Shown: positions 1-62,295 of the stretch, piece after piece
Layout: the number at the start of each line of letters is the position of its first letter
Numbering within the stretch: the stretch's first letter is position 1
Assembly (NCBI GenBank): GCA_905178155.1
Contig: CAJINV010000001.1
Coordinates: 13,718,664 to 13,782,663 of the forward strand
Reading direction: 5' to 3'
DNA: 64,000 bases
Origin: Amoebophrya sp. A120
Taxonomy: Eukaryota > Protista > Dinoflagellata
The notes under the pieces: generated by a model
Database searches by the model: none
What the model saw: the letters and a program-made list of their open reading frames with translations, nothing else
Told to the model about the DNA's origin: nothing
Program-made: the position numbers and the translations under genes

Positions 1-9
1 TTTTTTTTT

Positions 10-2297: not shown

Positions 2298-2997
2298 CAT
2301 TGTTGAACCAGTACTCAAAGTATCGTTGTGCTTGTGTACTGCTGACCAGGACGAGGACGACGCTTCGGAGTTTGAAGTCTAGACATGTCTGTCTCTTCCT
2401 CACTCAGGAAAAAATGCAGACTCCCATTGTTTAACAGCCCACACTTTTCTTTGGTCAACCAGAAACATAAAAATCTCGCGCAACGTACTTGTCTGTAAAG
2501 TTGGTACTTATCTGGATTACAGGCTACTCGAATACCACCATTCCGTTCTCAGCCCTTTGCCTCTACTATGAATAGGTTATGATTTGTTCAACTTCAAGTG
2601 TTCTACCTAGGATCTCCTGGTCGAAATGGAAATACTCTGGTTTGAGAAAGCTGTGAAGATGATCTTAGACTGATTCTCAGGTTCACTAAACGAGGAGCCG
2701 TCGATCTTGTTCAAAGAAATCAATAAAAGGATCATGATGTGTTCCCGGCTCGGTTTATTTTGTAATTGTCAATCATGTCATGGAAAAGGGTAACGGGTGG
2801 TCATGATAAGGATAACCAACAAGCATATTCAGTGATACCATTCTTCTTCGAGCAAGTGTCCCGGTTTTTGGTCCGCCTAAAAGTAAAAAGCGTAGTGCCG
2901 TTCTTTTTATTCCGCACAGAAAAAAGCGATAGCCTTTACAACCCGAATTACGGGTGCAAAAACATAAAGTTTGTAAACGATCATCCATAATATTGCC

Positions 2998-36000: not shown

Positions 36001-37584
36001 GCGAGCAGTAGCGCCGCCGCTGCGGGTGCTGGGCGATCGAGCAAGGCTGTAGCGGGAAAAAATGGAGTGGCAGCAGCAGGCGCAAATGCTGCGACAAATA
36101 ATGTAGTTTCATCGTCGACCGAGAAGCAGGCGATCAACATGGCAACGCGGTCGGGAAAATGTGAAGTTTTGTTGCAGCTTTTAGAGAACATTCTAAATGC
36201 CGACCCCACGGACAAGGTAAGTACTTACTGACACGGTTTTTCTTGCATGAAGGTGATGGCACGACTCGAAGCTGGTGTCTTCAAAGTACTTTATGATTTA
36301 CGAGTTGCCTCGCTTGTTGAGGTCAGGACATGCGATCTTCACATTCCACGCATTTTCTTCCATTGCTTTTCCGTGTAGTTGTGTAAACTGTTTTCACATT
36401 GCATCACCTTTAATTCGTATAACCCCTCGACTATTTCTATTTCAGGTTCTGATTTTCACGCAGTATGTCGGCATGGGTGTTCTGTTGCAGGCCATGCTGC
36501 GGAAAAAGTTTGACCTGGATAACGTGCCCTTTTTTCATGGAGGGCTCTCTAAGGAGGAGCGGTCCCGCCTGGTGAACACGTTTCAAGACGTGGAACACAA
36601 CTTGGCCGCAAATGCCTCCGGGAAAAAGAAACCTACCGCGACGAGATCATCTCCTAGCTCCGCGCGCATTCTGCTGATCAGTCTGCGTGCTGGCGGGACG
36701 GGGCTCAACTTGACCAAGGCTTCGCACGTGATTCATTTTGACCACTGGTGGAACCCGGTATCAAATGCAAAAGTGTCTGGGTCTGGAAGAATGCAACTTG
36801 TATTATGCTAAATCTCCAGTTTTGACCACGTCGGGAGGGAGTTTCTCATGCAGGACAAGCATGAAATTGAAAGAGATCGCACAGAATCTGTCATGCTAGG
36901 TCCTGCATTCCAGACCTCATGGGTCATGGAAGAGCTGCGTGACAAGTCGCGCACTCTTCCAGTCCCAGACATTTTTGCATTTGATACCCGGCGGTGGAGG
37001 ACCAAGCCACGGACCGCGCGTACCGAATCGGCCAGACGAAGAAGGTTTTTGTGTACCGGTTGCTCACCAACGGAACACTGGAGGATCGGATCATGCAAAT
37101 GGTGCAGAAAAAGCGGAAGTATCCTGTGCAAACGTGGTTCTTGTTGTACCACTTAGCCGCGGACCAATTCACTGCCTCAGACAATAAAACGCAACAATGA
37201 CTTTTACTGCAAGTAGCTCACATGAAGAAAACCATTTCTGTGCAGGATTTGGATTGGTGTTTTTGGAGCATGACTTTGTTTGTGTTTCGAACTTGGACGT
37301 GGCAAGGTCATTTGTAGTCTGGTCTATGGACTTGGACTTCTAGTCCTAGCCTCTAAGTGTGCGTCGAACAAGATGCTTTTGTCCTGCATAGGAATCTGCA
37401 GGAGTTAGCGGTTACCTCCGCCGAGACGTGGCTCACGGAGATGTCTTCAGAGGAATTGCGGGACTTGGTATCGCTCGGCAGCGGAAGTACGGTCGCCAGC
37501 AGTTTGGCAAACACGCTGCCCGCGGCTGCACCGGTGGGGGGCGTGCGCATAGTACAGTCGGTGGAGGAAATGGATGTGTCGTGA
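30046..37584 (+). CDS. Bacterial-type SWIM zinc finger + DUF3670-like + SNF2 helicase; 3 introns
   Basis: N-terminal YGKTWWG...NRLPRG; [16 protein letters not shown]; FNWTVAIGD...EEFEKMV...GLVKF; [28 protein letters not shown]. Removing introns 36217-36445 (GT-AG), 36759-36991 and ~37119-37394 gives [23 protein letters not shown] and [10 protein letters not shown]...[12 protein letters not shown]. Confidence 0.92.
36759..36986 (+). mobile_element. Introner, main family, 5-bp TSD CCCGG, inside the conserved helicase WWNPA motif
   Basis: TIR TATCAAATGCAAAAGTGTCTGGGTCTGGAAGA / TCTTCCAGTCCCAGACATTTTTGCATTTGATA. Removal restores [13 protein letters not shown]. Confidence 0.96.
37120..37390. mobile_element. 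Decayed introner
   Basis: Starts TATCCTGTGCAAA (same start as the 40099 element) and ends ...GTCCTGCATA. Flanks GGAAG/GGAAT match 4 of 5. Removing 276 nt keeps the frame. Confidence 0.65.
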
Positions 37585-38456: not shown

Positions 38457-40631
38457 ATGCCAACAGCAAGAACACTGTTCCCTTCGCGATTTCGGCCGCG
38501 GCTGCGCATGTGGCAACTTTCTCTGGTTCTCGCCGCGCTCGCAAAGCAGCATGTCGTCGTGGCGCCGGAAGAAGGCACCGCAGCGGATGACCAGCTGAAC
38601 GCTGAAAAACAAGAGAGCTGCGATGTTGCGGATCCCACTGCCGTTCCGGATCGCGTTCGCGGAGTAGATCACCACCCGCAGGGGTATTTGGAAACGGAGT
38701 TTACCGACCCGACCGACTTTGATGTTAATGCCGAGCCTACTTCTGCTACAACTTCAACTTCTTCAAACGTGGCGGGTGGACAAGATAATCAAGAAACAAC
38801 AACGCTGCAGACATCAGCGATTCTGGAGCTGGACCAGCTCGAGGAGCTGAAGAGGAACGACAAGCAGGATTTATTTGATGAAACTTCTGCGCCCGGTGTG
38901 GTCGTGAGAGGTGAGACGTTGACAAACTACAACCTCGCTGACGATATGAGCAGTGACGCTGGCAGTGTGCTCCACCTCGCATCCACTTCTCGTAGAAGTT
39001 CTTCTACCGGGCGAGGGAATGCTGGCATGATCTCGCAGGTCGCGGCGGACAGTACTAGCCAGTGGGACTCGTCGTATAAGAACGAAAATTGGAACCCGGG
39101 TACGCAGAAGCCGTTCAGGCCCGATGTGAGGACCCGTGAAGACCGAGGTGTGCCAACCAAAGAAGAGCGGAAGGAGGCACACCCATACTACCGCGAGATC
39201 ACCGACGAAGGGAAGCCGTCGAAGATTCACAACGGCCACCTTTGTATCTGCACGAGCCCGGACGCCGCCGGAAAATTTGACGAGAGCGAACCGCTGCAGT
39301 ATTACGTGGCCTTCGCCTACCCGGACATGCTCGACCAGGCGGTGGCGTGGTGGCGGAAGAACTACAAGAGTACCGCGGAGAAGTTGCCGACGTACGACGT
39401 GACTGAGTTCCGGGATCACGACGCCAAGTGGGACGCTGTGCCTGGTAGCGCGACCGTCCGCAATGCAGTGGGAGCGGACCCGATGCGTGGCTACCGGAAC
39501 TCCCTCCCGCTGGACGCAAACAAGTCGCTCCCAAAACTGGACGCCGAACGGTTCAAGCAACTGGCCGCGCGTGAACAACGCAATCGGAAGCAAATGTACA
39601 AGGAGTTCAAAGTGAGAGAGTTCCTGCGCCGGGTCCGGGGTGGGCGGGGAAAAACGGGCAACGAAGAACGCTACCGGCGCATGCGGTCGCAGGAGTACAG
39701 TGTGGAGTGGGCGAGTTGGTTTGAACTTTGGTTGATGTCCGAGAAGTACATTGTCCCCGTCGTGCCCGAGGACCGGGATGGGTTGATTCACCAGGAGGAT
39801 CTGAAGCGACAGAAGACGCAAGAGCCGTTTCAAAAGGTGAAAATTTACACCCGGAGGACCTGCTTCGGGGGGCAGCCCGTTGTCGATGTGAAGAGCCGCC
39901 CGACGCGAGGGTCCAGAGAGGAATTTACTTGCAACAATTGGGAGCAGAGCTCCCAGTCCGCGCTGGGGTGGGTAAACTGGGCCCAGCTGTGCCCAAAGGC
40001 GATGAAGTTCGGGCCCGACGACCGGTCCGGGGTCGATCTTTACGAGCTTGTGCTGCGGAAGCATCTGATGGATTTTAGCGACGAAGAGTGGGACGACATA
40101 TCCTGTGCAAAAGTATCGTACTCGTATGGCAATCATGCATTACAAATCTTTTTTTTAAGGGAAAGCCGCATTACAAATTTCACTTCTCATGCTGAGGAAA
40201 CTTGTAATGCATTTATACGAGTACGATACTTTTGCAGTCCATACGACAGCGCGCGGGACGACGTGCTGAGAAACCTGATTGCCGACGGGACGGTGCGAGG
40301 GATTTCCCGGAATTTTCCGTTCAAGTTGATGCTGCTCAAGTGCGTGAAGGAAGGATTCGAAGACCACTTTGTAGTGGAAGTGACCGACCAGGAGGCTGAA
40401 GACGCGTACGAGGACACATACGACGTCGAAAAATGGAACACGAACCGGCTCGGCATCTGGAACGGTCTGGATCCCACGTGGCGCTGGAGATGGAGAAGTG
40501 GGGGAGGTAAGCTCTACCGCTTTGCCCCGGCGCACGTGCGCCAGAAGTGCAAAAAGTCGTGCAGAGTCCTCGACCTGGAGTACAACAGCGACAGCGTGCA
40601 GCCCTACATCGAGAAGCGGAAGGAGCGGTAG
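38457..40631 (+). CDS. Hypothetical secreted protein containing a hidden in-frame introner
   Basis: 741-aa ORF with signal-peptide-like MWQLSLVLAALA. 150 nt at 40099-40248 is an insertion element. Confidence 0.75.
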   Translation: MPTARTLFPSRFRPRLRMWQLSLVLAALAKQHVVVAPEEGTAADDQLNAEKQESCDVADPTAVPDRVRGVDHHPQGYLETEFTDPTDFDVNAEPTSATTSTSSNVAGGQDNQETTTLQTSAILELDQLEELKRNDKQDLFDETSAPGVVVRGETLTNYNLADDMSSDAGSVLHLASTSRRSSSTGRGNAGMISQVAADSTSQWDSSYKNENWNPGTQKPFRPDVRTREDRGVPTKEERKEAHPYYREITDEGKPSKIHNGHLCICTSPDAAGKFDESEPLQYYVAFAYPDMLDQAVAWWRKNYKSTAEKLPTYDVTEFRDHDAKWDAVPGSATVRNAVGADPMRGYRNSLPLDANKSLPKLDAERFKQLAAREQRNRKQMYKEFKVREFLRRVRGGRGKTGNEERYRRMRSQEYSVEWASWFELWLMSEKYIVPVVPEDRDGLIHQEDLKRQKTQEPFQKVKIYTRRTCFGGQPVVDVKSRPTRGSREEFTCNNWEQSSQSALGWVNWAQLCPKAMKFGPDDRSGVDLYELVLRKHLMDFSDEEWDDISCAKVSYSYGNHALQIFFLRESRITNFTSHAEETCNAFIRVRYFCSPYDSARDDVLRNLIADGTVRGISRNFPFKLMLLKCVKEGFEDHFVVEVTDQEAEDAYEDTYDVEKWNTNRLGIWNGLDPTWRWRWRSGGGKLYRFAPAHVRQKCKKSCRVLDLEYNSDSVQPYIEKRKER
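40099..40243. mobile_element. Short (145-bp) introner, 5-bp TSD CGACA, no in-frame stop
   Basis: TATCCTGTGCAAAAGTATCGTACTCGTAT pairs with ATACGAGTACGATACTTTTGCAGTCCATA; CGACA on both sides; AT-rich island in GC-rich coding sequence. Confidence 0.9.
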
Positions 40632-41399
40632 CCTGCAAAAAGGCGCATCGTGGTGCTCGCCGGAGCTCTAGACTGATTGTTGTAAGTAGAACAAGATGTT
40701 GATCTTATTTATGAGAATGTTGTCTTCATCATCGGGCCATTTTTGTCTGTACGCAAAAGTTGTGTCCCTAAAGGCGTGCGGGTTTCACATTCTTGTTGAC
40801 GGGCCCCATCACGATTGATAACGCGTAGTACATAAACGACATCAACAATGTGCGCAAAAGTGTGTGAGGAATGCTAATGCTACTACTGAAACTGAAATGA
40901 GTACAACAGATACAGAAACAAATAGAATTCGAGTATCCGTGAAGTTTTGAAAGTGGCAGTGTCCGTCGTGCAACGCGGAATATATCGGGGAGACGATTGC
41001 GACGGATTAAGTAAACAAATATCGTGTTGCGCGTCTTTGGTTTTGCAAGGACAGGTTCGTATGTTCTCGAGGACTTTTTTGTGAACGAGTTGGAAAGCGA
41101 CTTGATTCTGACCTGACCAAGGTTGTGATTCAGCATTCTCATTCTTCTGTCTTACTTCGAAGCGAGCACACATAGTGACTTTTGCGATCCTCGTGTTTAG
41201 TTTCGCGATTTGCATTTTGGAAACTGATGCTGACCCTCCTGCTTGTTCCGACTGATACTGATTTATTAGTGTGCTTCGCGAGAAGCCTGATCATCTTCGC
41301 TTCTGCAACTGCGGTAGAATGAATTATGCGCGTCGTCAGAAACAGGAACAGCTTGCTCCAATCTAGACGGTGAAGTTGTGGAGGAGAAGGAACGCAACA

Positions 41400-44300
41400 A
41401 TGAAGGAAATCCAATTGGCGGACGTGGGGAAGATCAAAGTGGTTAGTGGGGGCGGCGGCCGTGATACCGAAGTCGATCAGCGCTCGTGGCCGCCGATAGA
41501 GGACCATGATCTGATCACACAACGGACAGGAGCCCAGCCGCTCCCCAATTGGATGCTGGACTTCCATCGCAGTCACAAGACCCAGCAGCGTTCAAGCAGT
41601 GGCCGTAGCAATGGCGTTGCTGAGAGATTGTATGCGCAGCTTTATCCGTTTCAGAAGGCTGGAGTGGATTTCATTGTGGACCGGAATTTTCGATGCTTGC
41701 TGGCTGACGACATGGGTACAGGCAAAACCGTACAAGGCCTGTGCTCCGCCTGCTTTTTTCGCGATAGGTGGCCAGTGCTGGTCCTGTGTCCGGCAAACGC
41801 CTTGCCGGTGTGGTTTGCGGAAGTGAAAAAATGGCTTCCGGATGTTCGTTTGCAGCAGGTGAAAACCGGAAAAGATGTTTTGGACGCGCACGCAGATATC
41901 GTCTTGATAACGCACGATCTAGCAAAAAGCCCCAACATGCAGTCACAGCTGCAGAGTCGGCCGGGCTCCGGTGGAGGTGCAAATCCGTATCAACTCGTAA
42001 TCGTGGATGAGGCACATCGGGCTAAAAACGACACAGCGAAGAGATCCGAAGCCCTGCGGGATCTGTCGCGCAAGGCGTTTGGCGCATTGTGGCTGACGGG
42101 AACTCCCGTCGAAAACACTGCTGTGGAGGCGTTTCCATCATTGGCAAACTACTACGAGAAACTCCCCCAAAACGAGTTTTTGCAGCGGTACAAGGGAGCA
42201 AGCAAGGCCAGGCTGCCTTTGCGAACAGCAGAGCTGTCTGCGCTGATGAAGTACTGCATGCTGCGTCGAAGCAAAAGAGACGTGTTGCCTGACTTGCCTC
42301 GGAAGACGCGCGAGGTCGTCAAGCAAGATTTCACACGAGATTGCTTGGGCGTTGCTTTTGTGTCTGGCATAGGTTCCGGAAATTCAAACTCGCAGCAGGC
42401 AGACGAAATGGAAAAAGGCGGCGAGAGTACGATGGAAAAGTTCCGAAAAGCTGGCGAAGTCAAGGTTCCGTGGATCAAGGAGCGAGTAAAGCAGATGTGT
42501 AAACTCTCGGTGAAAAGCAAAGTGAAGTTCTTGGTCTTCCACCACCACGAGCACGTCGGTAACGAAGTTGAAGCGAGTTTCAAAGAAGCCGGTACTCCGT
42601 ACGTGCGAATCAACGGAAAAACCCGAACCGAGGATCGACAGAGATTGGTCGAGAGGTTCCAAACAGACGAAGCAGTTCGGGGTGCGGTGCTGTCGATAAC
42701 GGCGTGCGGAGAAGCAATGACCTTGACCGCGGCGAATTACGCGTTGTTTGCCGAGCTGTACTGGAAATCAACTTCTTTGGAACAAGCAGAGGACCGCATG
42801 CATCGAATCGGGCAGCGAAATCCAGTCAACATAACATATCTTTGTGCTCGGAACACACTGGACGAACGCATCGTCGATCTTTTGGACAAGAAGGAACAGT
42901 TGCGGACGCATGTCGTCGATGGGCGGTCGCAGCGGTTCTACGACGAGATGAATGCGGCGGTGGTAGTCGCCCCTCCCTGTGTTAGTTCCGAGGATCAGCT
43001 GCAGCAGGAACTTTCCAATGATAGTAGGAGCAGCAGTAGCACAAGCACTGGAAGGAGATTTGCACTCACCGATGAAGCAGAGTCGCGTACTCGGGAAGAC
43101 CGCGAACAAACACATTTATTAACGCAAGTGACCGACTCACCTCGCATGCCTCTTGTTGAAGAAGACCGGTTGTCCTGCCAGTCCTCAAACAGTAGGAGGA
43201 CTACGACGCGAGAAGACCACCACCCCTGTGAACCGTTGCAGCAAGATGAAGCTGGCACAGATAGCCGGAGCTTGCCACCTGTGGATGATTCGTCTGGAAT
43301 GTACTCTGAGCCATGGAATCACAGTACTGCTCGTCCTTCCTGCAATAGTACTACAGAGCAACATCAAAGCAGTAGCAGATTCGAAACGGCACCTCCGGCT
43401 CTGGGTGCAGCTGTAGCAGAATTTCGGCCGACGATTGATGTGCGGGACGGGCAATGTCGTGCCCATTCAAGTCATCCTCCGTCATCTTGTACGACTACCG
43501 AAGGCAGCGGTGGGCTATCCTCGTGGTTGCAGCGAAAATTTTCCTCGTTGTCGAGCCCGACCTGCTCTCCCGAAGCGTTATTTTCCTCTAGTCCAGCTTT
43601 GACGACTCCGACTCCCACACCCGCTGGCACTGTTTTGGCGTCCTCGGAAGGAACGACTGGACCCGGAGTTCAGCATTTTACGGAGTGTAGAGGCGGCGAG
43701 ATGTTGCGCGGCAATTCATCACTGTCACCAAACACACGAATGTTCCATGAATTGGTCGACGAGGTTGCACACTCGGAAGAGAGACGTGATCAAAACTTTG
43801 TTGAGATTTTCCCCGACATGCAAGATGCTGCGTCGCCTACCTCCTCGTCGTCCCGCACCGGTCACATCACGCGCACCTACCAAGACGTAATGCAAATGTC
43901 TCACCTGCTTGCACATGCTCTCGAGGATCGACTACAGTCCGCAGACACTGTCCACTCTTGTGAAGCTGGCGCTTGGCTGAAAATTGCCGTGGACGTTCCC
44001 GTTCAAAGCGCTTTCTTTCTGCCTCTCCTGGCGGCGATTAGTCGAATTCACGCAACGGCCTGCTTTTTGACGCCCCGGCTTGGCTCGCATAGCGCGGATA
44101 TGAACGAAAAGGCGAAACTTCGTAATTTTCGAACCTGCGAGGAATTGCGGCCCCAGATTCAGATTACGGAGGATTTTTGCCGCCGTTTCGAACGCTACGA
44201 GGAAAAAGGATGGTATGACTTCCACCAGAATCGGAGCAGTGCTCGCGCGTCTCAGGATGATCGCCGCCTCCACAGTGGCGTGTTCTGCCTTGCTTACACA

Positions 44301-47300
44301 AGTGGGACCCGCGGAGCCGAAAAGTGTGTCGCCATCACGCACGATATGATCGCGCATGAGTTCCTGTACTACCCGAAGTTGATGCAACGGCTTCACCAGG
44401 GGCATTTGCCGGCAACGGAAAAAATTATTTGCGGAGCAAGCATGTATTGGGTAGCCAGCACGCTGGGTCAAATCAGCATGGCGCTCGCATTGCGTGGGGT
44501 CTGCGTATTTCCCGGTGCTGATACTCCAGAGTGCTACCTAGCAACGTGTCGCGACTCCGGAACCACGATTCTGGGCATAGCGCCAGCGACCTTTCAGCGG
44601 TACCTCGCGGCTTCGGGTGTCGGGAATGATGCAAAGCAGCTGCAGAAGCTTTTCCTGCCCAACTTGCACACTGTCATTTTCTGGGCTGAACCGCTTCCGA
44701 AGACGCTAGTGCTTTTGCTCGCACGTACAAGCCTGAGGGTTTGCGATCTGCTCATTGCGACCGAGTACTGGCTCTGCCTATACGCCGACGTACTCTCTGT
44801 TTCCGGCCCAGAGGCGCAGGGCTTTCAACTTGTCGACCGACAACTGGCAGCAGACGTTAAGGTAGTCCTAGATGTCACAGAAGAGGGGACTATTGACACA
44901 CGTTTTGGTGTTCTTCACGTTTGCGGCGGCTTCGTGTGTCCAGGATATTTTGACAAGCTCCGAGGCTCCATCGATGCCACGCCACCACTGTGGATTTCCG
45001 CGACCGAGCTGCGAGACAGGCTGCGCAACGTGGACGGCACAAAGCCTTGCGAGCAAGACGAGAGCGGATTCTTTTTCAACACCAATGACCGAGTCGAGAT
45101 CTTGCCAAGTGGCTATCTACGATTTTGCGGGCGCGATAACTTTCGCATTAAAATCCAGGGCGAGTATGTCGATTTGATGGCAGTTCGGGAGCGCATTGCC
45201 GAACAGGTCGGAGCAGATAGCGTCTCCCGCTCCGTGGACTTGCTTAAGTTGGACAATCAGTATCACTTTTTCGTTGCGGAGTTGAGCTCCGGACCGGGTG
45301 CAGGGCAGGCATCGTGCGGAGCGTCTATCAACAACTACTGTCTCGACGCATCCTCGCTTGTCGGCAAAGTCCTTCGCGAGATTCCACGTGACCAGGATGA
45401 TCGCATGTGTGTGCATTTTCGTAGCACGCTGCTGGAGAGAAATGCCGATGGCACAAAGCTGTGCCAAAAGACAGCACGAGCTGCAATTCAATCCGAGAAA
45501 GCTCGTCAAGCAACTTTCTTTCCGATGGCCGAGCCGTGGACACGGCGAAATTTGAAGAATCACGGAGCGCGGTTAGCAAAAACTTGGTTGCGGGGCAAGC
45601 TCTGCGGCCTTGTCCTCCTGCTATATCTAACCGTGCATATTAATGGAGCCTTTCTCTTTCTGTCGCAGTCGTTGCCGACAGTTGCAGTTCTGATGATTTT
45701 CTTGGGCGTGCATGCGTACGGGGACTTCCGCGTGTCACTGGTAGTCCTCTCCGCCTTGACCCTCGCTGGTCTGATTCCGAGCCGCTTAGATGATGTTGCC
45801 GCGTATTTGGAAGAACGGTCGGATGGGATCGGGCCTCCGCTATTCTGCGCTGCTACCCACGTCGTGAGCCGTGGAGTGGCGTTGTGGATGGTTTTGCCGC
45901 TGTTGCACCGGTTTGCCCTGCATTGCAACTGGACTGAGGACACTGATCTGTACGTTCGCCCACGCCCACCCTTTCGGGAAAGATTGCTTGGTGTAGTTCT
46001 TCGCTTGCCATTCTTCGTTGCGCACAAGCGCTTCGTGGGGGGTATTTTCGACACCACAAGGAGCGAAAGAGTCTGGAATCCGCATTGTTTTAACGAAGTA
46101 CTCTGGGCGGCGGGCTCGCTGTGCTTCGTGTTCGAACTGTTGCTCCGTGTCGTGATTTTACAGCACCTGCCACTTGTTCTCGGCCCATACGCAAGTCTGG
46201 CGACCTCGTGTCTTGACTTTGTCCTTTTGCTGTATGCAATTGTGTATCTGTGGCGAAAAAACGACGGCTACACACAGTTATTTTGGAACGGGCTAGCAAT
46301 GGAACTCGCAGCAAACAACAGCGCTGGGTCCTTTGTTCTCCTGCTACTACAACCGGAGAACAAAGAACAACGCAGGGCACGGACACGGGAAGACGCGAAG
46401 TCCCGTGACCAAAGCCGAACAACTACCATCAACACAGACAAGACTGGCACTGGCACTGGACAAGACGCGTCGACCAAGTTGGAGCACGAAAATCCACAGG
46501 CAGGTGACTATCAGGAGGTAGCAAGTGACGCACATCGTTTCGAAGAATACTACCTCGAGAACGAAGCGTGGGGGAGAGTGCTCCACACCACGCGTCGCCG
46601 GGAGCAGATCCACAATTTTCTTGAGCTGACGCAGCCCCTCGTTGAGTCCAGAAGCGGTTCCCAATTGTACGGGGACGTCGTGTCCGGGCCGGGCTTGCCC
46701 CTATCGGGATCCGAAAGGGAGATGCTGCTGCAAATAACTGACATTCTGCAGCACCACCTTCAATGTGCGGAAGACGCGGAACCCTGCACTTCGCTCTTAC
46801 ATCTCGATAGTTTGGCGCGGACCCAACTACTGCACCAGCTGCAGGTGCGCACGCAACGAAAAATTTCCACAGTGCAATTGCAGAAGTGCGATACTGTGGG
46901 GGACCTGGTGCGGTGCCTATCTGGCGCCTCCCCGGCAGAGGAGGAATGTGGACTGTCTTTTTCCTCAAGTGGTCCACTGACAGCAAGCACCAGCCCCGGA
47001 GGAGATTCCGAGGCCTCGTCCGTGACTACGGAGAAGGATGCACTGCTAGAGCATAGAGTGTGGTTTTCCGCGAACCATTGCAGGCCGATGGGGTCTTCGT
47101 ACTACGAATTGCTTGGTGAGCAGCCACTCGAAATCGATCCCGATCGTGTCTGTCGTGCGATGCACGCGGTTGTCAGCAAGCATCCGCTTCTGCGGACAAC
47201 CCTCGACGCTGGCACCGCGTACCTTCGGTTTATTGCCGACTCTGCTTCTCTGCACGACACACTGCAAGTTCATCAAAGCCGCGGCAGTTCAGGATGGTTC

Positions 47301-50300
47301 GACCACTGGCCGGGGCTTCGAGTACACGAAGCTGACCACTTGTATCCGCATGATGCACTACGTAAGGCTTGTTGCACCTGGTATGAAGTCAGCATAGGTG
47401 ACCGGGAGCCATTTTTGCGGGGATTGGACGGCAAGGCAGCCGCGGATTGTCCCGCGCTGCCACGACCCGTTTTTTGTCCGAAGTTGAGGACGCCGCTACG
47501 AATTGCGTTCGTCAGAATAGAGGATCGTCCCGGAAGCTTCAGGCGGTTTGTCTTCTTCTCCGCCCTACACTCTGTCGCGGACCCGGCGTCAATGCAGGCG
47601 ATTGCGGCAGACTTCTTTGGCTATTACAATGCGCAGAACCCTCCCGTGCTCGCACCGCGGTCCTCGCTCGGAAGCGTAGATCGAGCGGGACACATCCTGG
47701 AAGCCCGGCTCCGGGATACTCTGGTCAGTCGCGATCAATCACGTTTGACTTCGACAACGACAAATGTTCACGAAAAGGGCACGACGCGCGCATCTCTCCG
47801 CGGACACCACGCGCTGAATGCAAACAAGAAGTGGAACTGTATCAGCTTCAGTCGAACAATTGAAATCCGGGGCGAAGCGCTCCGTGCGGTCTACCGACTA
47901 GCAACGCTGTACCAAGTTCCGGTAGATCGATTGATGTTTGGCCTTAGCGTCGCGGCCCAACGTCGCGCGTCGAACAGTTCGGGGCCTCTGACCTACACAC
48001 TGTATGTGCCGATGCGCGATGAAGCAGATTGCGTTGGAGCCGTCGGTTTGTTCGTGGATTTTCGGGATCTGACTCTGTTTCAATCAGACACACTTCTGGG
48101 CCTGATTCGGGAAGTGGACGAGAAGATAAAAAACCGTGACTGGTCGGTCCATCGCGCAGAGCTCTTGCCGGAGACGACGGTGGTGAACTGGGAGTTACGG
48201 GACCGATCTGGTGTTTTAGGCCGGACTGGAAGTAGTTCTGCCGTGCAGGTGAGCGGAGCAAGACCGGGAAAGCACGATCTGGTCGCGTCTCCGCGCACCT
48301 GGTTCGAGTTGTGGGGCACTAACGAAGAGCAAGATCGCGCGGTCCGGTCGGGAAGCCAAAGAGTGCGCACCTTTCACTGGAACACACAGGAAAATGCGAA
48401 AATAAAGTTCACAGAATGCACGAAAGACGTATGGCGGGTGCGGATGAGTGTGTCTGAAAATTACCTCGCGCAGATAGCCAAGAACCTGAAGCCGACTGAA
48501 CAAAGGATGCCCGGGCTGTGGCACCGTCGATTTCAAAATAGCTTTGACAAGGCGATCGAGGGTCTCATGTTCTCGCCATTGCAGCAAGTGCTGAAGCCCT
48601 TTGGCGAGCACGCACAGGGAATACTCTGCCCATGGGAAGCGCCTGACTTAGCTGAAAATTCTCTCTGGCGCAGGTTTCGAGAATACGAAGGAACATTGTC
48701 CGAGAGAACCAGCGAAAACGCGGCCACGACTGAGCATCTTCTGCGCCGGACTTCCGCAAAAATTTTGCATGGCGATGAAGACTCGTCTGGTGTGCTCTCT
48801 TCACCGTCCGATAGCAGTAGAAGTGGGGCAGCAGCGCCAGGAGCAGGACGATTTGTTCTTTCCAGCAAGTGGCACGATGACGAACCAGCAAGCGGCACGA
48901 CGACGAACCATCATCAAGTTGCCGGAAGTCGAAGCTCCACATCAGATGACCCTTTTCGGGGGGGAAGATCGCACGCCGAGGATGCGAGTGGCCGCGGTTC
49001 GGGAGCAGAAACGAGAACAGGTTTTCATGTACCGAATAACGATCATGCTTTTTCGCAACATGAACACGAGACGGGAGATAGTAGTCTGTTTTTACTTTCA
49101 ACATCAAGGTCATTCTTCCCAGCCAGTGACGACGACGACGAACGCTTGCCGAGCTCGCTGACCGTAAGCAGATCGAGGAGCGACAGTTTTCATCTCGACG
49201 ACATCTGGGGATCTTCAATGTTGAGTTCACCATCCACGAATATGGCTGCACCTACCCAATTTACCGACTCGCTGCTGGACTTGACGGGATGCTGGAGGGC
49301 TGCCGAGGACGCTGACCGCCACGGCATGAGATCCGGAAGTCGTTACCAGAATTTCGTCGAAGCAGTGTTGCAAGAAGCATCGGCGCCTGTGTCTGATACG
49401 CAGAAAGCCCGTTTGAAGAGCGCCCAGCCCGGAGCCGTGCTTTACTACATGGACCGGGTTGGGCACGAAAGTTGGACACCGCTGCTAACATCTTTGAGTC
49501 ACATGTCGGACGGGGGTCATAGCGCTACTACGCCTTTGATGTCGGTGCGGCCACTTCGTGCCTCTTTTTGCGGAAAAAACAAAAGACGACATTTGCTCGC
49601 GATGTTGGGAACAGAACGATTCCTCGTGGTCCCCCTGGAAGCGAATCAGCTGGATAAAGCCGCGCTGTCCTTTGAATTTAATCAATGGCGTTACGTGCAG
49701 TGTGGGTCCCTGGATGTGGATCAGCAGAAGCCCCCACCATATGTAGTCGATGGTCTTTCCAAGCGAGGCGCCAGCAGCTCGGCCGCTGTTTTTGCGGAGC
49801 GCAACAAGGTCATTCCTTTTACGAGCGAAAGATCCAGTGCGGGCGGTTCGAGGCACCGCAGTCCCGCAGGCACTTCTCGCGCCGTTGCTAACGTCCTATT
49901 CTTTGCAGAGAGCGGCCCCGGATTGGACCCTCTCTCGATCGATGAGCTGTTTGCAAAGGTGTTTTTCCATTACCGTGCTGTGGATTTTTTGAACGAGCAT
50001 GGAAAACTGGTGTCTCGCATGCGGTTGAATTTATCGGAAGCGGCCTACTCGGCCAAGGCCATACCCGCGAACTGCCTACGCAATGGCAAGGACGACCTGC
50101 GGGCTGCGGATAGATACGATGGGTCCGTCCTCTGTTCGGATGGTCTTGGAATCATGAGCCTGGCCCTTGCCCGACACGTGCTCGGGGCCAAGCATGCGGA
50201 CGAAATTTCATTCCTGCAAGTGCGCATTGCAAACGCGAAAATGGGCGTACTGGTCGACGTCCATGACACGAACGATTTGTGGATAAACCTGCCAGAATCG

Positions 50301-51605
50301 GTGCAGAAGTTTCCAGTCGTGAGCATGACTGCAGTGCCCGAGGACGCGCGGTTTCTCCGCGTCGTGAAGATGCAACTGCGCACGGAGAACCTGAGAAACG
50401 ATTACAGCATGCCTTGGGAAATGGTGTTGGTGCTCGCCGGCGTCGCACACACCTCGGGACGACAAGCAGACTTCGAGTCCCTGCTCCGTGCCCGACAGCG
50501 CAAGCGAATCGACGAAACCGGGCGAGGTTTGTTCATGGAGCTGCAAGAAGCAGTGACCTTGCGGGCAAGGCTCAAGAACTGGTCGGAAAGGCTGCCGGCA
50601 GCCGGAGCATTTGGATCGAAGAGAGGTTACAAGGAGGATTTCAAGCAGCTTGCGACCACGGCCCTGGAAGGCCTTGACCGAAATTTTGCCGAAGGTTGCA
50701 GGGTAGCGCGCAGACTCGCACGAGAGCTGGAGCTGGTGCCAAGCGTGAAGCGATTTCAGCCGCTCCGCGTAGCTGAGCAAGCCTACCGCCCCTTTGTGGC
50801 GCCCGACATGGACCAGCGGTTGCCCGTGGATCGTGTGCTCTGGAAGCGCAACGGACTCTTCTATTCCGGCACGGTTGGTGTCATGAAAAATCCGTGCAAG
50901 TTGCTGACCGGTTTTCAAAAGTACCGGGGCGTGAGCGAACGCGAGGTCAAGGAGTTGTTTCCACGTGGCGGGCCATCGTACGCTTTTGAGAATATCCTGA
51001 TCATGCCCGCCAAGGCCCGGAACGGTCGCTGGGTGTTTGATTTCCACGCGGGGATGGATGCCGACGGTGACGCACCGCTCGTTCTTGAAGATGAGGAGCT
51101 CTTGCGCTTGCTGACGCCCATTCTCGAGGAGTCCCAGCAAATACAGGAGCTGCAGCAAGTGGTGAAGGAAATAGATACTAGCCAGCTGCCGTCCGTCGTC
51201 GATTGCCGAAGAGCGTCCAGCTCGCGACAAGCGTTGTCTGAGGCTATTACAGCCGAAATCCACCGGGACGCAGGTGAGCAATGGCTTCCGCTTTGCGATA
51301 CCGCCTGGACGATCGCGGCAGATAGGCACGGGGTGCAGCATGCAGCAGCCGAGGCTTTTGGCTTTTTCTGCGGCTTGGCCGTCGACAAGAAGTTGCCGAA
51401 CTCTCTTGTCTGTGACTGGTTGAGTGCGAACAGATCGTATCAGCAATATTGGCCTGGAGGAACTCGAACTACGGAGTTGCGGCCTCGGTGGTATTTGGAG
51501 TACAAAGGTAACAAGCTTGCCTTTCGAGGCCACCAGTGTGACACAAGCGTGCTTCATCGTTTGTGGCAGTTTTCGGTGGACTTGGCAAAGGGCCTTGATC
51601 CATAG
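41400..51605 (+). CDS. ~3400-aa fusion: SMARCAL1/HARP-like SNF2 helicase + NRPS-like A-(TM)-T-C module + eukaryotic RNA-dependent RNA polymerase
   Basis: One stop-free frame. Helicase: LYPFQ, LLADDMGTGKT, VDEAH, LTGTP, QAEDRMHRIGQ. A domain: LAYTSGTRGAEK (44295), NTNDR...GRDNFRIKIQGEYVDL. Carrier: LHLDSL (Ser codon 46809). C-like: LHSVADP (47565). RdRP: SDGLGIMS, LQVRIANAKMG, VMKNPC, AGMDADGD (51057-51071). Confidence 0.85.
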   Translation: MKEIQLADVGKIKVVSGGGGRDTEVDQRSWPPIEDHDLITQRTGAQPLPNWMLDFHRSHKTQQRSSSGRSNGVAERLYAQLYPFQKAGVDFIVDRNFRCLLADDMGTGKTVQGLCSACFFRDRWPVLVLCPANALPVWFAEVKKWLPDVRLQQVKTGKDVLDAHADIVLITHDLAKSPNMQSQLQSRPGSGGGANPYQLVIVDEAHRAKNDTAKRSEALRDLSRKAFGALWLTGTPVENTAVEAFPSLANYYEKLPQNEFLQRYKGASKARLPLRTAELSALMKYCMLRRSKRDVLPDLPRKTREVVKQDFTRDCLGVAFVSGIGSGNSNSQQADEMEKGGESTMEKFRKAGEVKVPWIKERVKQMCKLSVKSKVKFLVFHHHEHVGNEVEASFKEAGTPYVRINGKTRTEDRQRLVERFQTDEAVRGAVLSITACGEAMTLTAANYALFAELYWKSTSLEQAEDRMHRIGQRNPVNITYLCARNTLDERIVDLLDKKEQLRTHVVDGRSQRFYDEMNAAVVVAPPCVSSEDQLQQELSNDSRSSSSTSTGRRFALTDEAESRTREDREQTHLLTQVTDSPRMPLVEEDRLSCQSSNSRRTTTREDHHPCEPLQQDEAGTDSRSLPPVDDSSGMYSEPWNHSTARPSCNSTTEQHQSSSRFETAPPALGAAVAEFRPTIDVRDGQCRAHSSHPPSSCTTTEGSGGLSSWLQRKFSSLSSPTCSPEALFSSSPALTTPTPTPAGTVLASSEGTTGPGVQHFTECRGGEMLRGNSSLSPNTRMFHELVDEVAHSEERRDQNFVEIFPDMQDAASPTSSSSRTGHITRTYQDVMQMSHLLAHALEDRLQSADTVHSCEAGAWLKIAVDVPVQSAFFLPLLAAISRIHATACFLTPRLGSHSADMNEKAKLRNFRTCEELRPQIQITEDFCRRFERYEEKGWYDFHQNRSSARASQDDRRLHSGVFCLAYTSGTRGAEKCVAITHDMIAHEFLYYPKLMQRLHQGHLPATEKIICGASMYWVASTLGQISMALALRGVCVFPGADTPECYLATCRDSGTTILGIAPATFQRYLAASGVGNDAKQLQKLFLPNLHTVIFWAEPLPKTLVLLLARTSLRVCDLLIATEYWLCLYADVLSVSGPEAQGFQLVDRQLAADVKVVLDVTEEGTIDTRFGVLHVCGGFVCPGYFDKLRGSIDATPPLWISATELRDRLRNVDGTKPCEQDESGFFFNTNDRVEILPSGYLRFCGRDNFRIKIQGEYVDLMAVRERIAEQVGADSVSRSVDLLKLDNQYHFFVAELSSGPGAGQASCGASINNYCLDASSLVGKVLREIPRDQDDRMCVHFRSTLLERNADGTKLCQKTARAAIQSEKARQATFFPMAEPWTRRNLKNHGARLAKTWLRGKLCGLVLLLYLTVHINGAFLFLSQSLPTVAVLMIFLGVHAYGDFRVSLVVLSALTLAGLIPSRLDDVAAYLEERSDGIGPPLFCAATHVVSRGVALWMVLPLLHRFALHCNWTEDTDLYVRPRPPFRERLLGVVLRLPFFVAHKRFVGGIFDTTRSERVWNPHCFNEVLWAAGSLCFVFELLLRVVILQHLPLVLGPYASLATSCLDFVLLLYAIVYLWRKNDGYTQLFWNGLAMELAANNSAGSFVLLLLQPENKEQRRARTREDAKSRDQSRTTTINTDKTGTGTGQDASTKLEHENPQAGDYQEVASDAHRFEEYYLENEAWGRVLHTTRRREQIHNFLELTQPLVESRSGSQLYGDVVSGPGLPLSGSEREMLLQITDILQHHLQCAEDAEPCTSLLHLDSLARTQLLHQLQVRTQRKISTVQLQKCDTVGDLVRCLSGASPAEEECGLSFSSSGPLTASTSPGGDSEASSVTTEKDALLEHRVWFSANHCRPMGSSYYELLGEQPLEIDPDRVCRAMHAVVSKHPLLRTTLDAGTAYLRFIADSASLHDTLQVHQSRGSSGWFDHWPGLRVHEADHLYPHDALRKACCTWYEVSIGDREPFLRGLDGKAAADCPALPRPVFCPKLRTPLRIAFVRIEDRPGSFRRFVFFSALHSVADPASMQAIAADFFGYYNAQNPPVLAPRSSLGSVDRAGHILEARLRDTLVSRDQSRLTSTTTNVHEKGTTRASLRGHHALNANKKWNCISFSRTIEIRGEALRAVYRLATLYQVPVDRLMFGLSVAAQRRASNSSGPLTYTLYVPMRDEADCVGAVGLFVDFRDLTLFQSDTLLGLIREVDEKIKNRDWSVHRAELLPETTVVNWELRDRSGVLGRTGSSSAVQVSGARPGKHDLVASPRTWFELWGTNEEQDRAVRSGSQRVRTFHWNTQENAKIKFTECTKDVWRVRMSVSENYLAQIAKNLKPTEQRMPGLWHRRFQNSFDKAIEGLMFSPLQQVLKPFGEHAQGILCPWEAPDLAENSLWRRFREYEGTLSERTSENAATTEHLLRRTSAKILHGDEDSSGVLSSPSDSSRSGAAAPGAGRFVLSSKWHDDEPASGTTTNHHQVAGSRSSTSDDPFRGGRSHAEDASGRGSGAETRTGFHVPNNDHAFSQHEHETGDSSLFLLSTSRSFFPASDDDDERLPSSLTVSRSRSDSFHLDDIWGSSMLSSPSTNMAAPTQFTDSLLDLTGCWRAAEDADRHGMRSGSRYQNFVEAVLQEASAPVSDTQKARLKSAQPGAVLYYMDRVGHESWTPLLTSLSHMSDGGHSATTPLMSVRPLRASFCGKNKRRHLLAMLGTERFLVVPLEANQLDKAALSFEFNQWRYVQCGSLDVDQQKPPPYVVDGLSKRGASSSAAVFAERNKVIPFTSERSSAGGSRHRSPAGTSRAVANVLFFAESGPGLDPLSIDELFAKVFFHYRAVDFLNEHGKLVSRMRLNLSEAAYSAKAIPANCLRNGKDDLRAADRYDGSVLCSDGLGIMSLALARHVLGAKHADEISFLQVRIANAKMGVLVDVHDTNDLWINLPESVQKFPVVSMTAVPEDARFLRVVKMQLRTENLRNDYSMPWEMVLVLAGVAHTSGRQADFESLLRARQRKRIDETGRGLFMELQEAVTLRARLKNWSERLPAAGAFGSKRGYKEDFKQLATTALEGLDRNFAEGCRVARRLARELELVPSVKRFQPLRVAEQAYRPFVAPDMDQRLPVDRVLWKRNGLFYSGTVGVMKNPCKLLTGFQKYRGVSEREVKELFPRGGPSYAFENILIMPAKARNGRWVFDFHAGMDADGDAPLVLEDEELLRLLTPILEESQQIQELQQVVKEIDTSQLPSVVDCRRASSSRQALSEAITAEIHRDAGEQWLPLCDTAWTIAADRHGVQHAAAEAFGFFCGLAVDKKLPNSLVCDWLSANRSYQQYWPGGTRTTELRPRWYLEYKGNKLAFRGHQCDTSVLHRLWQFSVDLAKGLDP

Positions 51606-52079
51606 CACCCGCTTTGGTAAAAGATTGTGAAACAACTTCTCTGGTGTTGTGCGTTTATGCGCGATCTTTTTTCATTTTTATATCCGTGTCCCTCAGAAGT
51701 GGTGATTCCCATTCATTGCAGTTGACGAAATTTTTTCAACACATGCTGACGTTTTGTTTCTCAGGAAGCAACGCAATCAAAAGCAGCCTGTTGTGCAACA
51801 TGTGATTTTCGTCGTGGATGACCATCGGCTGGAAGTAGGAAGCGGTCTTTGTTGATTCCGGTGTTTATTCGCTCAAAGAGATCATGTGCGTGTTTTTAGC
51901 GAAAAGATCATCAAACTTACTTGCATTGAGCGTCTCTTTTTTTTGCAGACTACTCTCGTGAGGAACTCACATGATGTACACGTAAAAAGAGTGAGGCGAA
52001 AAAGGTTCTGAAACCTCCGCACGAGGCATGATCTGAGAGCATCATTAGACGGTGTTTGGTGTTTTCTTGTAGAACAAAA

Positions 52080-53015
52080 ATGAGTGCAGACCTCCCAGAT
52101 GTGCTTCGCCCTCCGCAACATCAAGGCACAGAGGCCACAGCGCGCCAAGTAATTCGAGTCCTTTGTTTGCACCCGAAGAACAGCAACAGTGTCTTGTTCA
52201 AACAAGAATTGGAGGTCGTGCGCACGACGGTTGAAAAAAACACTTTACATCAAGCGTTTGTTTTTGAGTGGGTGTTCCTTGACGCGCCAAACCTGCTTGC
52301 TCCCCACAAGGACCCCGAGGGACGGGTGTGGTGGCAGCTCGCAGACGGTGCCAGGTCGTTCACCGCGGAGGCCTACTTTGGAGATGACAAGTCCTTGGAC
52401 GTTGTAGAGAGTACCATAAAGAACGTCGACCTCCGGCCGAAAAACTACTCCGCCGAGGGTCAAGAGCATGGTGAAGGCCACGACGCACCTACAGCTACCG
52501 GTATCCTAGGTTTCAGCCAGGGCGCCATGATGGGAGCCATCGCGGCGGCGCGCAATCCGGACCAGATAAGATTCGCGGTACTTTTTGGCGCCGCGGTGCC
52601 AAAGCCGTACGAAAAAGTTCTCGAAGATTTCGGAAAAAACAGCAGTACTGCCCGCCCGGATGTTCTTTCGGTGCTCAGCCGGGAGGATTCCGTGAATCCC
52701 CCTGACATGGGGAAATGGGTCGGCGACTGTCTGAACCCGGAATCTGCGACGGTCTTGTGGCATGGCGAAGGCCACCAGATTCCAAAAGACCCGGAAAAAC
52801 TCGAGGAAATCGCAGGTTGGATCGCAAATCGTGTTGTCATTGTTGGTACAGAAGCACCAGGAAAAGCAGAAGCAACATCGTCTAGATTTTTGGGTCTCGT
52901 TCCAGTTGCTGGAACCAAGTCTGTTCTTTGTTGCTGGGACAGCAAAATCTTCAGTGCGCAAAATTTACATGATGCACGAATTCGTTGCTTATTTGCTGCT
53001 CCTCCCTGTCCTTGA
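52080..53015 (+). CDS. FSH1/OVCA2/LovG-family serine hydrolase
   Basis: RVLCLH, VFLDAP, RVWW, GILGFSQGA (nucleophile), EDSVNP and WHGEGHQIP give a Ser-Asp-His triad pattern. Confidence 0.88.
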   Translation: MSADLPDVLRPPQHQGTEATARQVIRVLCLHPKNSNSVLFKQELEVVRTTVEKNTLHQAFVFEWVFLDAPNLLAPHKDPEGRVWWQLADGARSFTAEAYFGDDKSLDVVESTIKNVDLRPKNYSAEGQEHGEGHDAPTATGILGFSQGAMMGAIAAARNPDQIRFAVLFGAAVPKPYEKVLEDFGKNSSTARPDVLSVLSREDSVNPPDMGKWVGDCLNPESATVLWHGEGHQIPKDPEKLEEIAGWIANRVVIVGTEAPGKAEATSSRFLGLVPVAGTKSVLCCWDSKIFSAQNLHDARIRCLFAAPPCP

Positions 53016-54606
53016 CGGCAACGAGTCGTTCGCTCTGGACACCACTTGTCACCGTAAGAACCTATGTAGGTAGGGACGTGAAAAAATACGGACGTAATGG
53101 CAATGACGAATCGTCAATACTAGTCACTGCTCTTCGGTCGTGGAATTGTCTCCGTCGGTCACTGGAGAATCTTGCAACAGAGCTCTCGGCGTGTAACAAG
53201 TACGTGAAGCAATCAAGAATGTAGTATCCTGTATCGTAACGTAGACGTGCGATGAAATCAACTTTTTGTGTGACAGCAAAGAAAAATCACGACTTTGCGA
53301 ATTCGTTTTGATCGTCGCACTTCGTGGATATGTACAGGCTCCACTCAATCAACGTCATCGTATTGTATTTATTTTCATTCGTTCTTCGACGGTGATGTAC
53401 AAAAGTCGAAGATCAACAGAATGAAAAAACGGTTGACAGTTTTTTTTGTGAATGTGCTATCGATAACGATATCGCTCACGTGGTAGTTGGTGTAGTAAGC
53501 AGCGAGAGCCACAGCTATTGCGCTGCGTCAACTCTAACAAGAACTCTACCTTCATTGAGTAAGCTGCAGAACATAGTAAACCATGACAGCTGCTGCGAGC
53601 GTCCAGCAGGGCACTGTTGCTAACGACGAGATAAAACAACAGGACGCCAACATGGACCACCCTCACGACCAGGCCAACCCTTTTGCAGGGTACTCGCCGC
53701 GCACGCTGCGCAAGATGGACACAGAAACGTACGCCGCCGACGGCAGCACGCTACTTGAAGCTGCAGCAGAGGCAGAAGTAGGGGTGGGCGAGGACAAGGA
53801 GAACATAATATGTAGTGAGGTCACCGAACGGTTCTAACCGGGGAGTTTTTTTGCCATATACCCTGAAAAACGACCGGCAGTTTTCAAGCGGCCGACGACC
53901 CTTTTTGACATAAAGAATTTCCAATTACTCAGCGGCCGGGGCTTTGATATCAAACAAGCCCGGTCGAAAACTATCGACTCGCACTTGATAAAACGACGCA
54001 GGGGAGCCGGCAAAAGGGGCGCCCTTCTGAGGCGCCCGCCGCCTTAGTTTCTGGCGATTTGGGGCGCCCAAAAAGGGGCGCGCAAAAAACGCGCCCAAAA
54101 TCAGAACAGCGAAACAGCATGGCACGGCCGCGATTTCGGAGCATCTTGGGCGGCCGCGAAAGCGGCCGCCTTTTTGCCGGTTTTAGAGCCTGGGAAGCTT
54201 TGCAAAAAGCGCCGGCGTGAAAAATAAAAACGCGAAAAATAAAAAACGCCCCAGACGCGCAAAGCCAATCCGCATGCTATGGGCCCGGTTTTTCTTCGCT
54301 TTTTGGGCGCCCCCCGTGGCACCCGGATCGGCCCCATAGCATCGGGGCTGGCTTTCGGAAAGGAATTTTGGAAATGTGCCAAAATTTGTGACGTTTCCCA
54401 AGTGGCCGCCATACCGTGCGGCATAACGTTACTCGCGGCGGTATGGCGAGCCCAAAAAAAGCAAAGCCGCGGCCAAGGCGGCGGTCGGCAAAAAAACGCC
54501 CACGACCTCACTACCCCCGCCCCGGCGGCTATATTTGGTAAAGAACAGTGCGGCACCTCCTGCGACCCTAGTATCAAGATCACCGAAGGAAGAAGTGAGT
54601 CTTTTC

Positions 54607-60940: not shown

Positions 60941-61766
60941 GCTCGAAGAGGTTTGTTGATGGCGACCATGCCACAATTGGATAAGTACATACTCACCGCT
61001 TTACTTGTCTGAGCGACCACGTACGAAAAGAAATCTTCGAACCAAAACCATGAAACTGATGGTGCATAATGGAGATCTTCTCGTGCTGTTCCGCCTCTGA
61101 TGTAGACTATTTCATGCATGCGTGCGTTTTTCTTGCGTTCGACCGTTCGTCCTCGTCGAAAGCAAGCTCTTCGTAAATGTTTCAATCGCGTGAGAAAGAG
61201 ACGGAGAGACAGAATAGAGTATAGAGATGAAAAAGGTGATCTTCCCGCGTGTTCTTATCCCTAAGAAAAATCGCGCCATACCGTCGCGATTCGTGGGCTT
61301 TTTTTATTCTAGACAAGGCCTGGCGTGTCTGAGGCTAACAAAAGCGCCACCGCCCAGGGCTATCCAAAGCCTTCGCCGCGCATCATCCAGAGGGTCGCGC
61401 TTTCGTGCTTAGCGCAGCCCCAGCTCATGCGCCAGGGAACGCTCTGCACACTGACAGAATAACCGCCGGCCACTGCGTCCAAGTTCGGGCGCCCGGGCGC
61501 GAGCTGATGCCCCACCCAAAGAGCCCCCCCAAGCCGGGGCTACGCCGGCGGTCGCACCGGGCCGCGGCAGTGTGCGCGCCCACCCGTCTCTCTTTGTGCC
61601 AGGCAGCAGATGATGGCCCCTCCGGTGTTGTCTTTGGTGCCTGCGCCGTGCCGTCGGTCCTAAATTAGGACCGGTGGGGCGCTGGCTCCATAAAATGATA
61701 CGTATATGGTTATGGGACCACGTCCACGAAGCAAAGATGGTGCTTCAGCTGCGCACGCCCCCGCTC

Positions 61767-62295
61767 GTGCATAGATAAGAGCACTGCTGCAGCGACCTGC
61801 TGTGGTGTTTTGGGATGAAGCAGAGTTGTAGCTTCGGCTCCAAATGTTCCCGTTCTCGTTTTCTGTTGTTCTTATCCTCCAACTCCGTGCATAAATAAAG
61901 AAGTTCTCATCTATGCACGGAGATGATTGGACGATCAGAATTGAAGCGTCTCCGCCAGATGTTCCCGTTCTCTCAAACATGCTGTTCTTATCCCTCCTGT
62001 TCGTGCATAGATAAGAACACCATTGTTAGGTCGTTACAAACGTGTTCTTATCTATGCACCATTTGGAGGATAAGAACAGCATGTTTGCGAGAACGGGAAC
62101 ATCTGGCGCAGAAGATGTCATTCTGCTTCGTGCCAGCCACCAATTTCAGGTCGTTACAAGCGTGTTCTTATCTTTGCACGGCGTGGAGGATAAGAGCAGC
62201 AGTGTTCGAGAGCGGGAACATTTGGCGCAGAAGCTCCAACTCTGCTTCATGCCAAAACATCAATGCCAGGGCGTTGCAGTAGGTGTCCTTATCTA
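61767..62295. repeat. Foldback (nested inverted repeat) of ~120-bp units
   Basis: 61953-62020 pairs with 62042-62108 (21-nt loop); ~61772-61860 pairs with ~62207-62295. Shared motifs TAGATAAGAACA and ATGTTCCCGTTCTC. Confidence 0.85.

Follow-up and report, generated by a model that had tools for sequence, protein, structure and literature searches.

The DNA analysed here, referred to as the window, is a 64,000-nt stretch of the genome of Amoebophrya sp. A120, and it raises the question of whether a SNF2 motor, an NRPS-like module, and a cellular RdRP are made as one polypeptide. To our knowledge, the assembly lines of secondary metabolism and the polymerases of RNA silencing are regarded as unrelated machinery. 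On the forward strand of the window, a stop-free frame of 3401 aa encodes all three parts in the order SNF2, linker, adenylation (A), transmembrane (TM), carrier (T), condensation (C), linker, and RdRP. The first-pass annotation had proposed these domains in this order; Pfam, fold searches, and motifs bore out both the calls and their order, and the motif coordinates agreed. The features are as follows.

41400 to 51605, forward strand: whole frame (translation; identical DNA contig over 40216-53832).
41622 to 42929, forward strand: SNF2-family ATPase with Walker A at 41706, DEAH at 42006, and motif VI at 42783 (Pfam, motifs).
42942 to 43754, forward strand: linker 1, 271 aa, Ser/Thr-rich, GC 54% (shuffling; similar linker in protein P0002 of Amoebophrya sp. 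A25).
43767 to 45479, forward strand: adenylation domain with A3, A5, A7, A8, and the A10 Lys, and with Val at the Asp235 position (Pfam, alignment).
45600 to 46232, forward strand: hydrophobic helical region with four predicted TM helices (hydropathy; low-confidence model).
46800 to 46919, forward strand: carrier (T) core with Ser1804 at 46809 (Pfam; Ser in 15 of 15 rows).
47031 to 48572, forward strand: terminal condensation-fold domain with HxxxD at 47568-47582 (ESM Atlas, alignment, fold search).
48672 to 49319, forward strand: linker 2, about 215 aa, Ser-rich (shuffling).
49021 to 49108, forward strand: GT-AG intron of 88 nt (3n+1) (joint in RNA-like runs X3 and X4).
49120 to 49122, forward strand: predicted alternative acceptor CAG (sequence prediction).
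49159 to 49161, forward strand: TGA closing the spliced helicase-NRPS frame of 2557 aa (translation of the spliced form).
49218 to 51605, forward strand: cellular two-barrel RdRP, 795 aa from ATG 49218, with DxDGD at 51057-51071 (Pfam, fold search).
51606 to 51861, forward strand: likely 3' UTR (RNA-like contig ends at 51772-51861).

A 13,617-nt DNA contig matched positions 40216 to 53832 with zero differences. This contig may be the source data of the window, a point in favor of a misassembly or of a chance joining of three neighboring genes. Such a joining is so improbable as to be practically negligible, since the two Ser-rich linkers proposed at first pass, both of which were found, are stop-free beyond chance (linker 1 was open in 0 of 20,000 shuffles; P = 3.5e-4 for linker 2) and have a coding-like GC content (53-54% versus 42-45% in the flanking intergenic DNA). 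In addition, RNA-like contigs from a sample other than that of the DNA contig match the window without substitutions, and the domain order recurs in other organisms (see below). The codon-usage score was low in both linkers and gave no support for coding by itself, which we attribute to the Ser/Thr bias. None of the RNA-like contigs of the four runs, all from one sample, extended across linker 1.

The N-terminal part had been described as SMARCAL1/HARP-like. The description held at the level of the SNF2 family, as indicated by Pfam matches to SNF2-rel_dom (aa 84-311; 4.8e-26) and Helicase_C (aa 363-471; 4.9e-11) and by the presence of Walker A, DExx (DEAH), and motif VI. The HARP domain itself was not detected, with no match, even at E values of up to 10, in the N-terminal 85 aa or in the N-terminal 88 aa of the A25 protein, to which the SNF2 part is ~40% identical (P0002). 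The motif V-VI region presumably recalls SMARCAL1. The compact SNF2 core and intact motifs are common to this protein and SMARCAL1/ZRANB3, but the fusion partner is here an acyl-transfer module. JBP2 and DNMT5, which are SNF2 motors fused to modifying enzymes, are precedents for the type of fusion and likewise differ in the partner. The closest ESM Atlas clusters for the SNF2 part were stand-alone phage and bacterial SNF2 proteins. The window has another SNF2 gene at 30037-36231, which is of the SWIM plus DUF3670 type (2064 codons, stop-free).

The adenylation domain was identified by an AMP-binding match (aa 857-1184; 3.5e-17) and by the core motifs A3, A5, A7, and A8, as proposed at first pass, together with the A10 Lys. 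In the family profile, W-x-A-S aligned to F-D-x-S of solved A domains. Asp235, the residue that binds the alpha-amino group in amino-acid-activating A domains, was absent in all 14 family rows, the position being occupied by V, A, G, or P (Val in the window). Loss of Asp235 is typical for keto-acid-activating A domains according to PMC10949194. Because the same residue is lost here, the A domain likely activates an acid devoid of an alpha-amino group rather than an amino acid. Aminoacyl activation, which the first-pass annotation had also envisaged, is unlikely with Asp235 absent.

Between the A and T domains, four hydropathy peaks (1.63-1.98) were found at aa 1401-1611, and relatives have two to four peaks at the same place. 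The Pfam search returned no family match for this region, which was modeled as low-confidence helices (pLDDT < 50), so that its TM status is a prediction only; the region may be membrane spanning, a weak prediction. The carrier domain and its Ser were both retrieved, with a PP-binding match (aa 1801-1840) just over the Pfam cut-off (20.9 versus 20.8 bits) and with Ser1804 invariant in the 15 aligned rows. Thus, SNF2, Helicase_C, AMP-binding, PP-binding, and RdRP all exceeded their Pfam cut-offs, in contrast to Condensation, which gave no match on the whole protein and remained below the cut-off when the isolated domain was searched (E 0.0039). The condensation-like domain announced at first pass was nonetheless recovered by other means: Pfam detected Condensation in the A25 orthologue (1.6e-7), ESM Atlas called it at 0.97, and the fold search matched the C-domain model to PCP-C structures (LgrA, 7e-13), the module model used having a mean pLDDT of 53.7, with the TM part under 50. 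At least 90% of 15 rows retain the His and Asp of HxxxD.

Pfam revealed a single A-T-C module, with neither a TE nor an R domain in the chain. By its predicted domain content, the module is therefore NRPS-like rather than a canonical NRPS. Modules of the A-T-C type with a terminal transferring C domain are known, such as fumonisin Fum10/Fum14, and SgcC5 and Fum14 are acyltransferases acting onto a free acceptor. SgcC5 and the enacyloxin release C domain were among the fold-search matches of the C-domain model. The module of the window resembles these systems in its A and T domains, in its C fold with HxxxD, and in lacking a thioesterase in the chain, whereas it differs from them by the predicted TM block between A and T, the absence of Asp235, the fusion to nucleic-acid enzymes, and the lack of a biosynthetic cluster save a neighboring hydrolase. 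This hydrolase, an FSH1-family serine hydrolase encoded directly downstream (52080-53015; Pfam 1.9e-19), is a possible trans-acting thioesterase; no FSH1 homologue was present in the 13 loci of the NRPS scan described below, and the RNA-like contigs have their poly(A) at 52878, ahead of the stop codon of this ORF. The second point of comparison is the epsilon-poly-L-lysine synthetase Pls, an amino-acid-activating enzyme with an A-T organization followed by TM helices with three C-like domains, whose A domain was among the matches of the A-domain profile comparison. Both are membrane-anchored single-module NRPS-like enzymes (by prediction in our case), but here the TM block precedes T, there is one C domain, and Asp235 is missing.

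At the C terminus, the proposed cellular two-barrel RdRP was confirmed by PF05183 (aa 2862-3330; 1.7e-14; 53.9 bits versus a cut-off of 23.8). A phmmer search against PDB sequences gave no match; the fold search did match, the RdRP model (pLDDT 67.5) displaying the double-psi two-barrel fold of QDE-1 (2j7n; Foldseek 1.6e-19) and RDR2 (7w82; 9e-13). The catalytic DxDGD is intact (aa 3220-3224), and at least 90% of 15 rows preserve it. The two-barrel fold and DxDGD are shared with QDE-1 of Neurospora and RDR2 of plants, with only 14-16% identity, a separate clade from the conventional RdRPs retrieved, and a C-terminal location on an NRPS-like chain predicted to be in the membrane. According to the entry titles, QDE-1 structures have been solved with both RNA and DNA templates. 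The known SNF2/helicase partners of RdRPs are separate polypeptides, as in CLSY-Pol IV-RDR2, SAD-6, and QDE-3, whereas here the SNF2 part and the RdRP share one genomic frame.

Relatives were sought among proteins with the NRPS region (4 proteins among 7,996 candidates) and with the RdRP (15 among 1.84 billion representatives, including that of the window). The nearest named relatives, with 32-40% identity, belong to Amoebophrya sp. A25. In this organism, P0002 (CAD7974892.1) has the organization SNF2-HelC-A-T-C, with SNF2 joined to A via a similar linker and an end inside the C domain, and P0008 (CAD7974891.1) is an RdRP fragment that starts at the catalytic motif; the two are consecutive gene models on equally long contigs. 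Because both model ends fall mid-domain, the pair suggests one gene broken by annotation. P0016, from locus L005, is an A-TM-T-C-linker-RdRP chain in one 2990-aa protein devoid of SNF2. It is encoded by a single frame (9818-18805; 2995 codons) with a GC content of 41%, against 31-33% in intergenic DNA; its 341-codon linker was open in 0 of 20,000 shuffles, no SNF2 was found within 28 kb, and the linkage there is read from the DNA frame. In P0012, the end of a C domain, a linker, and the N-half of an RdRP occupy one frame (pairwise E 3e-12 and 3e-21; matches of 2e-16 and 4e-49 with profiles built without P0012), and P0007 is an RdRP C-half on a contig as long as that of P0012. P0006 was called as a stand-alone 744-aa RdRP. 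Judged from these frames and gene models, the linkage recurs elsewhere (L005, P0012, and the consecutive models of A25) and is conserved in other organisms, an argument for the NRPS-like module and the RdRP being functionally tied.

The module also occurs alone. The NRPS scan confirmed 15 of 168 pattern matches, at 13 loci, with an RdRP at 1 of the 13 and SNF2 at none; at least seven complete A-TM-T-C proteins, on transcript-like contigs, stop after C without RdRP. None of the relatives found had all three parts in one translated frame. Word-based protein searches for an RdRP at fusion lengths returned 0 of 2,542 and 0 of 7,984, a weak result, since both missed P0016 although its length falls within the range covered, and a first metagenome scan, with 0 of 598 pattern matches, missed L005, which is present in the same collection. 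Viral contigs (0 of 181 and 0 of 27) and prokaryote genomes (0 of 144) yielded no relative; these are weak negatives on the same ground. Neither the A25 gene identifiers nor two Pfam identifiers occurred in 10 supplementary files of PMC6176090. Several members of the family carry a domain between TM and T, namely, WWE in L004 (1e-10), a zinc-ribbon/GATA-like finger in L002 and L008, and a Cys motif in L001; the WWE and zinc-ribbon inserts hint at signaling or conflict roles of the A-TM-T-C family. L006 has tandem modules, with the end of one family C domain and its stop at 217-1248 and the A domain of a second copy at 2716-6662. The gene right after the fusion in L005 (19588-27669) encodes a second large RNA-processing fusion, a 2693-aa chain with a T4-type RNA ligase, a 3'-5' exonuclease, R3H, an AAA_33 kinase, and an AEP primase-polymerase; it has no homologue in the window.

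In the A-domain tree (15 rows), the window, A25, L005, L001, and L006 formed one clade (100/100). In the RdRP tree, built without P0012, P0017, P0021, and P0023 (non-overlapping, short, or redundant sequences), the window, A25, L005, P0006, P0007, and P0009 grouped together (99/97), apart from seven conventional RdRPs; by these trees, the fused RdRPs are a new RdRP clade. Both trees were midpoint-rooted, and P0016 has a long branch in both. These relationships bear on the alternative offered at first pass, the recent insertion, in frame, of an NRPS-like cassette into a helicase-RdRP gene. The position of the NRPS block between two Ser-rich linkers and the existence of stand-alone modules are in its favor. 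However, NRPS-RdRP occurs in L005 without any SNF2 across 28 kb, the SNF2-A junction is also present in A25 (32-40% identity), no repeat pair among those listed flanks the NRPS block, and protein searches for relatives found no SNF2-RdRP devoid of NRPS, making the insertion very unlikely. The simplest history would start from a stand-alone membrane module, which would have undergone one old fusion to an RdRP, SNF2 being added later.

The full chain could also be a polyprotein of convenience, whose parts would merely be co-expressed, the Ser-rich linkers being cleaved or tolerated. Linkers of 210-340 aa among relatives show no sequence conservation, partners vary (SNF2 is present or absent, and stand-alone modules carry WWE or a Zn ribbon), and in the L005 genome a further large multi-enzyme fusion lies beside this one. 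Yet organisms with 25-33% identity keep the C-linker-RdRP order, and the fused RdRPs group in a clade of their own; we consider mere co-expression improbable.

Whether the frame is translated in full depends on an intron. The RNA evidence consists of contigs of four runs from one sample, at a depth of 3-6. Their assignment to RNA is a guess by the program used, and they behave like poly(A) RNA, with abrupt ends at 40956-40957, poly(A) at the end at 52878, and scant intergenic cover. Cover was patchy over the gene and climbed toward one 3' end near 51860. In two of the four runs (X3 and X4), the 88-nt GT-AG intron was spliced out. Its GC content, 38.6%, is intron-like and the lowest of any 88-nt segment of the frame. 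Splicing shifts the frame, so that the upstream part stops at TGA 49159-49161, and the first ATG of the RdRP frame after the intron, only 56 nt beyond the TGA, is that of the 795-aa protein. The uninterrupted frame reported at first pass thus stands for the DNA and not for the RNA-like contigs; likewise, the single triple polypeptide is compatible with the open DNA frame, but the splice of the RNA-like contigs parts the RdRP from the rest. If the same donor were paired with the CAG at 49122, the computed excision would be 102 nt, and the fusion frame would stay intact. The full triple protein needs either intron retention or this in-frame acceptor, and neither was observed among the RNA-like pieces listed. 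The raw RNA runs X9-X11 (0, 1, and 0 reads) were too few to inform. We treated an extra base at 49573, present in one contig at depth 4, as an error. The intron terminates in TCAAG (49104-49108), the same five bases that end the dinoflagellate spliced leader reported in PMC7789003, a match probably due to chance; the acceptor at 49108 could be usable for trans-splicing, leading to an RdRP-only mRNA.

These data invite the reading that the gene is undergoing fission: an ancestral fusion whose intron is always spliced, so that only a 2557-aa helicase-NRPS protein and a 795-aa RdRP are made. In variants, the two would come from overlapping or dicistronic transcripts or the RdRP mRNA would have the intron in its 5' UTR, the open frame being a relic. 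The spliced form was seen in two of four runs, with no unspliced form among the pieces listed, the database model is the 795-aa protein from ATG 49218, the GC content is that of an intron, and P0006 was called as a stand-alone RdRP. On the other side, the frame is open through the intron and the next 109 nt up to ATG 49218 (P = 0.035 by shuffling), which gives modest support to a read-through form in use, the intron alone being stop-free by chance with P = 0.13. One contig (48774-49370) crosses both the TGA and the ATG, separated by a very short gap, and no poly(A) or 3' end was seen between C and RdRP among the contig pieces listed. The RNA data are shallow and come from one sample, and PMC7789003 reports no evidence for polycistronic mRNAs in the Amoebophrya lineage. 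Taken with these points, fission in progress is a serious possibility that we nevertheless hold to be doubtful.

We favor, as somewhat more probable than its opposite, a conserved NRPS-like/RdRP fusion that is likely a membrane-anchored polymerase, preceded by SNF2 in the Amoebophrya lineage and carrying an intron that likely mediates a switch between fused and separate forms. In this fusion, the A domain would adenylate a carboxylic acid lacking an alpha-amino group (a keto, aryl, or fatty acid), which would be loaded onto the phosphopantetheine of Ser1804 and passed by the terminal C domain to a free amine or hydroxyl. Transfer to a free acceptor is likely because there is one module with a terminal C domain and no thioesterase, and the acceptor would most likely be a membrane lipid or a small molecule, the membrane being suggested by the predicted TM block. 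Since stand-alone A-TM-T-C members exist, the acyl chemistry would be independent of the RdRP, and the most economical role of the fusion would therefore be to tether the polymerase to the membrane, with splicing as the release. The 3401-aa form would result if the intron were retained or the CAG at 49122 used, and it would put dsRNA synthesis at the membrane, next to an ATP-driven nucleic-acid motor; the splice at 49108 would yield the 2557-aa helicase-acyltransferase and a free 795-aa RdRP. Several observations run against a switch between fused and separate forms: the sole RNA form across the intron is spliced and frameshifted (two of four runs, one sample), at least seven complete modules end after C without RdRP, indicating that the module works alone, the intron has an intron-like GC content and could be stop-free by chance, and nr and EukProt carry the 795-aa RdRP alone.

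A bolder and distinctly unlikely proposal is that the C domain acylates the product or template of the RdRP itself, placing a lipid-like or keto-acid tag on the dsRNA or small RNA that this polymerase would make while bound to the membrane. The tag would serve export or protection in the parasite-host conflict, the SNF2 motor would feed templates, and one intron would toggle tagging. If true, it would be the first case of carrier-protein (NRPS-type) chemistry acting on products of RNA silencing.

The window also carries high-copy inverted-repeat elements, which the introners described for Amoebophrya resemble (PMC7789003). A 147-nt high-copy element with terminal inverted repeats (40097-40243) is in frame and stop-free within a 724-aa ORF (38457-40631), which likely includes an introner. 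Other inverted-repeat families or nested inverted repeats are located at 20346-20913, 25804-26585, 36754-36996, and 61220-62840, and a tandem array of 96-99 nt is found at the start of the window (2-563).

The novelty claimed for the architecture holds, as no paper describing RdRP-adenylation-condensation fusions or dinoflagellate NRPS-like TM proteins was found in the literature searched, a mention in a domain-architecture survey being possible. The NRPS-RdRP linkage and the A-TM-T-C enzyme family are apparently undescribed. Public annotation conceals the link by splitting the gene: nr and EukProt annotate the RdRP on its own, and the 3401-aa protein is absent there. Parts of an assembly line and of a silencing polymerase, their catalytic residues intact, are fused in two or more further organisms and adjacent in another. 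The frameshifting intron offers an easy means of telling three isoforms apart. The full form, if it is made, would let one ask directly whether RNA synthesis is linked to acyl transfer or to a membrane in marine parasites, which control algal blooms.
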